Positions 49,825 to 50,186 of a stretch of 64,000 nucleotides of DNA are shown piece after piece (the stretch's first letter is position 1; the number at the start of each line of letters is the position of its first letter). Position numbers and translations under genes: made by a program. The DNA is taken from positions 258,912,001-258,976,000 of the forward strand of contig JBNRSN020000004.1 of assembly GCA_051313645.2 (NCBI GenBank), written 5' to 3'. Under the pieces are notes generated by a model. The model ran no database searches. It saw nothing but the letters and a program-made list of their open reading frames with translations, and was not told the origin of the DNA. Origin of the DNA: Centroscyllium fabricii. Taxonomy: Eukaryota.

Positions 49825-49922
49825 GATGGATTCAATTCCTTGCCAAATTCCTTTCTACGGTTGAGTTGCAACTGGTTGTTCCAAATCACCCAAGCGTGGA
49901 GACGATAATAAGTTGAATAAAT

Positions 49923-50186
49923 TGATGTAATAAAGACTTACCAAGCTCTTAGTGAACATAAAGCAAGGCTTTATTCAACTTATAACATAACATAAAGAGA
50001 GAGAACTGGTTCACAGTCACTAGCCTCCTTGTTCTAGAGTGTCTCTGTTTAAACTGAGGCTCAGGCTCCAGTATTTATACTCCCTGGTCGGTGCCCTCAG
50101 CTGGCCGACGAGTAACTGTTCCTAGGTTGTTTGGAAGTCCAACCAGTAACTTTCCCAGGTTATTTTAGAAGTTGTGTTTTACGCCA
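49923..50186 (-). repeat. 5' LTR of Gypsy C
   Basis: Direct repeat of 45638-45902, upstream of gag. Confidence 0.93.

Follow-up and report, generated by a model that had tools for sequence, protein, structure and literature searches.

How does a Ty3/Gypsy retrotransposon start reverse transcription when the sequence that follows its 5' LTR matches its own LTR? The element that raises this question lies on the minus strand of a 64,000-nucleotide stretch of the 7.2 Gb genome of Centroscyllium fabricii, referred to here as the window. An original prediction, made from the letters of the window, had proposed that the element may be primed by its own LTR, without a tRNA.

A primer site complementary to its own LTR

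The element is a decayed Ty3/Gypsy retrotransposon with two LTRs that are 92% alike. Its TG...CA LTRs, target site duplication and polypurine tract are those of an LTR retrotransposon, and the order protease, reverse transcriptase (RT), RNase H, integrase is that of Ty3/Gypsy. The gag-pol region of this copy carries numerous stops and frameshifts. The parts of the element, in its own reading direction, are:

50187..50191, minus strand: left copy of the target site duplication (right copy 45633-45637; 5 bp, one mismatch)
49923..50186, minus strand: 5' LTR, 264 bp, TG...CA, a direct repeat with 45638-45902 (92% alike)
50072..50079, minus strand: TATA box, TATAAATA from 50079, 96 nt upstream of the LTR segment
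49970..49983, minus strand: LTR segment that pairs with the primer site and is the likely self-primer; it ends in AATAAA
49969..49971, minus strand: candidate cut site at the segment's 3' edge, between AA and AGCC or between AAA and GCC; return point in 11/11 misjoined LTRs of family 1 (see below)
49923..49969, minus strand: 47-nt loop, comprising the rest of R and U5, with a stem adjoining the segment predicted by folding; presumably the template of minus strong-stop DNA
49922, minus strand: one-base spacer (A) between LTR end and duplex; 1 nt in 19/21 and 2 nt in 2/21 element types
49908..49921, minus strand: primer binding site position, without TGG, TTTATTCAACTTAT, the complement of 49983-49970
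45914..49824, minus strand: gag-pol region and 3' untranslated part, with Gag, protease, RT (YLDN), RNase H and integrase in order
45903..45913, minus strand: polypurine tract before the 3' LTR, ending in AA, read in the sequence
45638..45902, minus strand: 3' LTR, 265 bp, a direct repeat with the 5' LTR

Going by the position of the TATA box, transcription would start about 65-70 nt upstream of the segment. The catalytic motif of the RT (window 47840-48232) is YLDN here and in most relatives and YLDD in a few. Two tandem 84-bp units (window 46017-46184) lie close to the 3' end of the internal region, and what looks by eye like a CR1-type LINE surrounds the element (window 45200-45637 and 50187-50970).

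As predicted, the 5' LTR is followed not by TGG but by one A (49922) and TTTATTCAACTTAT (49921-49908). These 14 nt are the exact reverse complement of 49983-49970 (LTR positions 204-217), AATAAA included. The longest complement between the first 25 nt past the LTR and the LTR itself was compared with that obtained for 3000 dinucleotide shuffles of the LTR: shuffled LTRs reached at most 12 nt (2/3000) and never 13 or more (0/3000), and shuffles of the AT-rich last 100 nt of the LTR gave a maximum of 11. The distance of roughly 100 nt between TATA box and segment was also correctly anticipated, at 96 nt from the start of the box at 50079. The complementarity extends to the family: among 29 other copies, chosen by similarity, all 14 positions pair in 22, one position is unpaired in six and two are unpaired in one. 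Between sister subfamilies of this genome, segment and primer site change jointly at three positions.

The window itself holds an internal control, and it contains no tRNA gene:

2804..2817, minus strand: ordinary TGG primer site of a Mag-type Gypsy element, read in the sequence

This Mag-type element (also window 48-2700) is split by an AT-rich insertion; relatives of its RT make up the Mag-type rows of the tree described below.

Covariation and the place of the clade

Covariation between the primer-site position and the LTR segment, which the original prediction looked to, is found across the clade. A metagenome set of 80 loci, which contains near-copies, has a gag start in 30, and three of these lack upstream DNA. 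In 22 of the 27 testable loci, a perfect inverted repeat of 11-18 bp stands before gag, and each beats 30/30 shuffles; the other five, inspected by eye, comprise a misplaced window, a mismatch, a deletion and two with nothing visible. We also compiled a table of 21 element types, four from this genome and 17 metagenomic, which are partly non-independent. Each primer site matches its own LTR over 11-18 nt (mean 14.2), against a mean of 6.2 with the LTRs of other types, and the cross pairs reach 11 nt in 4 of 420 cases. The duplex keeps a fixed register, beginning after a spacer of 1 nt past the LTR's CA in 19 types and of 2 nt in two, and none of the 21 has the TGG primer site of tRNA-primed LTR elements. 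Among relatives, loops range from 23 to 67 nt and duplexes from 11 to 18. Constrained folds, judged by eye and without a shuffle control, were set against the three-duplex 'pretzel' fold of Tf1/sushi; a helix of three or more pairs starts no more than 2 nt from the segment in 16 of the 21. In several families no leader follows the primer site, and in several the gag start codon lies within a few bases of the duplex. The metagenomic copy L049 has four shared-site differences from four relatives in 236 nt; two of these form one compensated pair, which in this single case is present in both LTRs of the copy.

Two further families of the clade in this genome have different pairing sequences. A second clade family is also represented in the window:

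60027..60242, plus strand: 5' LTR and primer site of the second family (segment 60186-60196, spacer 60230, primer site 60231-60242)

Its LTR carries the same TATA box, 83 nt before the segment. The gag region of this second element is interrupted by three tandem 554-bp units (window 60847-62516).

A protein search with the RT stretch found 209 relatives; among the 120 listed, the named hosts are shrimps, a lobster, a copepod, corals, a damselfly and a ray. Among the matches listed, intact relatives are single open reading frames of about 1200 aa, and the Gag of relatives carries two Cys/His knuckles. The original prediction had called the element non-chromoviral. Its domain content agrees: no chromodomain was found in the two long open reading frames and RT stretch of this copy, and neither PF00385 nor PF24626 in the five intact relatives scanned or among the domains listed for the 120 homologues shown. 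The RT is about 28-30% identical to the chromovirus-type RT of this genome. In a quick RT-RNase H tree of 56 rows, which carries a long-branch warning and is drawn without Tf1 itself and other Gypsy clades, the clade forms its own branch (SH-aLRT 100), apart from chromovirus-type rows (99) and Mag-type rows (100), the last so labelled because we take the reference proteins to be K02A2.6-like. In an AU test of 34 rows, grouping with fish chromoviruses alone was rejected (p = 0.038). Grouping with fish and two fungal-type rows was not (p = 0.107, long branches), so a common clade with Tf1/sushi stays compatible with this test, and the prediction holds for domain content and the tree. Judged by domain content and distance, an origin independent of Tf1/sushi is likely. 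A structure search of the PDB returned Ty3 and retroviral enzymes only, and a scan of viral contigs gave nothing useful. Chromovirus-type elements are abundant in this genome, and two of eight stretches (L205-L212) also carry RT from yet another family of the present clade.

Two known groups invite comparison. The Mag lineage (SURL and relatives) is presumably of similar size and likewise has two Cys/His knuckles in Gag, but it forms a separate RT branch in the quick tree, and the Mag-type element of the window has a TGG primer site. The size of the element also fits that of Cigr-1. The Cigr-1 clade of Ty3/Gypsy is that of Ciona and, in the accessible text of PMC6238403, also of molluscs; the same text, which names the clade, leaves primer sites unmentioned, and a motif search of its readable supplements was empty.

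Misjoined LTRs and a deletion hot spot

We searched the genome for the segment running into the predicted first minus-strand bases, i.e. T plus the LTR end in antisense. The left junction was set by the search pattern, and any switch inside the inverted repeat would produce it; the return point was left free. For the family of the element under study (family 1), it gave 11 exact matches, and a reversed-pattern control gave none. These misjoined LTRs consist of U3, the segment, 8-21 nt antisense of the spacer and LTR end (shared letters counted), and the LTR again. In all 11 the LTR resumes at AGCC, GCC or CC, no more than 3 nt from the segment edge, and a 7-nt AATAAAG homology at hand served as return point in none (0/11), which suggests a physical end at that position. 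They derive from at least three LTR backgrounds (10 of the 11 could be placed on a tree). None is the 5' or 3' LTR of an element, none has a polypurine tract before it or a primer site after it, and eight are flanked by target duplications with one mismatch at most. For ordinary LTRs, with a sister subfamily and not the misjoined copies' own as baseline, the counts are 7/28 solo and 21/28 within elements.

Family 2, that of window 60027-60242, gave 55 matches, 46 of which lack 16 nt and equal a snap-back product. Among these 46, 36 are solo with a duplication, five unclear and five inside elements, compared with 12/28 solo (p = 1.2e-4, subfamily unmatched). Because U5 is partly palindromic, the loss of 16 nt fits strong-stop DNA that snapped back onto its primer; it can instead be a plain deletion at the hot spot described below. 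The other matches of family 2 are two inverted U5, four full inversions and three of other kinds. One full inversion (L384) stops at the segment edge; in L382 the return lies upstream via microhomology, away from that edge. Family 3 gave two matches, both inversions. Two of the four full inversions of family 2 are palindromes:

G000:C933:308100010-308100710, strand not given: L385, palindromic insertion
G000:C933:367647330-367648030, strand not given: L386, palindromic insertion

Both are 390-bp palindromes with two LTR left ends and perfect 5-bp target duplications. Such structures would be hard to make from an integrated element, and they point to formation before integration, as by-products of reverse transcription; the plus strand ending in the primer-site copy would be expected with any primer. 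For the other misjoined LTRs, the same left junction can arise when host replication or break repair switches template between inverted repeats, and they could thus be host products followed by solo formation. Only the return point and the solo bias speak for reverse transcription over host template switching.

Template-switch products do occur here (L126, L296). In L126, a 5' LTR has its segment duplicated in inverted form and the hairpin loop inverted (about 1320-1370), i.e. a template-switch mutation. A separate observation concerns L266/L337 (G000:C711, near 256180500), where a 3' LTR is followed by the spacer and ten primer-site bases and then by host DNA; in this one case a primer copy may have been retained at the cDNA end. 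We rejected a reading of the motif matches as LTRs joined to antisense RNA up to the start site, as all of U3 is present and the start is not mapped. Truncated 5' ends were likewise rejected as marks of the transcription start, since the apparent truncation in at least L116, L129 and L158 comes from nested insertion, the remaining LTR being found upstream. A single contig joint near the primer site, in contigs of two runs guessed to be RNA, was too weak to use.

Family 2 also has a deletion hot spot. In LTRs chosen by internal sequence (copies L233-L292), deletions of 2-22 nt over the segment edge and a small hairpin affect 14/28 5' LTRs and 4/25 3' LTRs (p = 0.011). The 5' LTR of this family in the window lacks 13 nt at the segment edge, and its 3' LTR has them. 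Partner LTRs are without the same deletions, so these arose late in reverse transcription or after insertion. The proposed cut site and the hairpin both lie under the peak, which cannot tell them apart; in family 1, deletions at this place are scarce. An inherited subfamily carrying the 13-nt deletion was considered and rejected: the deletion is shared by no readable 3' LTR among the 20 copies picked, and it is also absent from the five readable partners of 13 further deleted 5' LTRs.

A proposed priming scheme and its alternatives

The pairing signal is real and clade-wide, with self-priming as its best explanation, and we regard self-priming in some form as highly probable. The predicted priming by the element's own LTR is supported by covariation across families, by the constant distance of the duplex from the LTR end and by misjoined LTRs with the structure expected of primer extension. 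The form we favour, with somewhat less assurance, is Tf1-like, with the 5' copy of the segment as primer. In this scheme, the 5' copy would fold onto the primer site, beside a short stem, and the RNase H of the RT would cut between AA and AGCC or between AAA and GCC, as in Tf1. A cut after AA would leave two bases beyond the CA, mirroring the AA before the left TG. In the two element types whose spacer measures 2 nt, pairing begins only at +3, and this fits a cut after AA with a 2-base overhang. Extension of the freed 3' end would proceed across U5 as far as the cut end, and the resulting short strong-stop DNA would transfer to the 3' end of the RNA. The primer would stay joined, and copying would place its sequence in the new primer site; the paired changes would be explained in this way. 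Going by the TATA box, the primer is probably internal, 65-80 nt into the RNA, unlike that of Tf1. Where the segment contains AATAAA or ATTAAA, the pairing may also damp 5' polyadenylation. Finally, snap-back onto the primer would, we infer, remove the primer-site copy, block second-strand transfer and leave single LTRs. Inheritance of a primer copy would not be a general property of LTR elements, since the primer sequence is not inherited in Ty1 and Ty3, going by the available parts of PMC5371799.

The self-primer might instead be the 3' copy of the segment, if the RNA circularises and the 3' copy of R, once annealed to the primer site, is cut at that point. The segment is present in both LTRs, such a primer would leave a longer R for strand transfer, and U3 stands upstream of the segment in all misjoined copies, with a polypurine tract before it in L401 and L438. 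Yet U3 upstream is equally expected from plus-strand DNA, the 5' copy lies only 48 nt from the primer site and is made first, and the minus-sense stop at the segment edge in 11/11 family-1 cases would go unexplained. We consider this variant unlikely. Slightly less likely still is the exact scheme of Tf1, in which the segment's first base is the transcription start and the primer measures just 11-18 nt. The duplexes of 11-18 and loops of 23-67 nt do resemble the 11-nt primer that Tf1 has according to the accessible text of PMC7175516, and in several relatives a TATA box was not seen by eye. Against it, a TATA box precedes the segment by 83-96 nt in both families of the window, and an AATAAA so close to the start of the RNA, inside its first 14 nt, would be a poor fit to R.

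A third alternative confines the duplex to masking the 5' poly(A) signal, or to working as an RNA switch, and has a host RNA as primer. Hairpins that occlude the poly(A) signal operate in HIV-1. The likeness is that the hexamer lies in a helix, here in 13 of the 21 types, whose segments end in AATAAA or ATTAAA, and a switch would suit the gag start codon standing so close to the duplex in several families. The difference is that the partner strand here is the primer site, and the helix is kept even where the hexamer is missing. Masking, which the original prediction had raised as well, is therefore not the general purpose of the pairing, because 8/21 segments lack the hexamer, and two of these eight have it downstream, outside the duplex. 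In LTR elements, the 3' end of the primer defines the right end of the cDNA; the fixed register of 1-2 nt is thus needed by a primer and not by masking. About 18 different primer-site sequences, without TGG, would moreover each need their own host RNA. We hold this explanation to be improbable, and masking may be a side role, as in the present family, where the idea may apply; here the hexamer can also pair within the LTR, with a local hairpin and U5, in both LTRs. The reading of the inverted repeat as a functionless by-product, kept in step by DNA template switching, for which the template-switch products described above could be cited, is largely refuted, as the repeat is kept exactly where a primer is required, in LTRs unrelated to one another and in hosts far apart, and no alternative primer site is present.

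The Tf1-like scheme with the 5' copy as primer has a close model. In Tf1, according to the portions available of PMC7175516, PMC4600332, PMC5341516 and bioRxiv 10.1101/2022.12.06.519325, pairing involves the first 11 bases, and RNase H cleaves between base 11 and base 12. A primer site complementary to the own LTR, in place of a tRNA site, is shared with Tf1 and Tf2 (Schizosaccharomyces pombe), Tj1, Tosmo and the Tf1/sushi chromoviruses. The present clade differs from the latter in having no chromodomain or SH3_Tf2-1 domain and its own RT branch, and in a primer that probably lies inside the RNA and in many cases overlaps the poly(A) signal. Self-priming has also been predicted for the plant TAR lineage (Houba, Osr-1; Ty1/copia) and plant Tcn1 chromoviruses, where the accessible text of PMC6317226 uses at least 10 bp of complementarity starting 0-5 bp past the LTR. 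The pairing in this clade lies within those bounds; TAR and Tcn1, by contrast, are of copia order or chromoviral, and their hosts are plants. As far as the texts extend to which we had access, self-priming is placed in Tf1/sushi, Tcn1 and plant TAR (PMC3601003, PMC6317226, PMC4600332, PMC7175516, PMC5341516, PMC5371799, bioRxiv 10.1101/2022.12.06.519325), and further sources place it likewise (PMC6238403, PMC8556966, PMC2871265, PMC7472051, PMC10680173, PMC5443660). A term search of PMC2774666 had no matches. We found no description of self-priming in this clade in the literature searched, from which Repbase Reports, GyDB and most subscription journals were absent.

Priming without tRNA has been shown for fission-yeast Tf1, is treated as a mark of Tf1/sushi and is predicted for one plant copia lineage. 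If a large animal clade without a chromodomain primes itself too, the mechanism would have either a broader origin or more than one. tRNA supply and tRNA fragments would have no hold on such elements, and annotation tools built around a tRNA primer site would overlook them. We suggest, tentatively and with rather more doubt than for the priming itself, a widespread animal Ty3/Gypsy clade that came to self-prime independently of Tf1/sushi, with a primer cut from the middle of the RNA at or near the poly(A) signal. Hundreds of integrated by-products, namely snap-back single LTRs and palindromes with two left ends, would then locate the cut with single-base precision. If this were true, a share of 'solo LTRs' would be direct insertions and not remnants of recombination. 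The misjoined LTRs offer a nucleotide-level prediction of the cut, and they call into question the use of solo-LTR counts as a pure measure of recombination.

Elsewhere in the window, a 382-aa open frame (25543-26691, minus strand) contains a TALE-type homeobox (Homeobox_KN) and is probably a host exon or a retrocopy.
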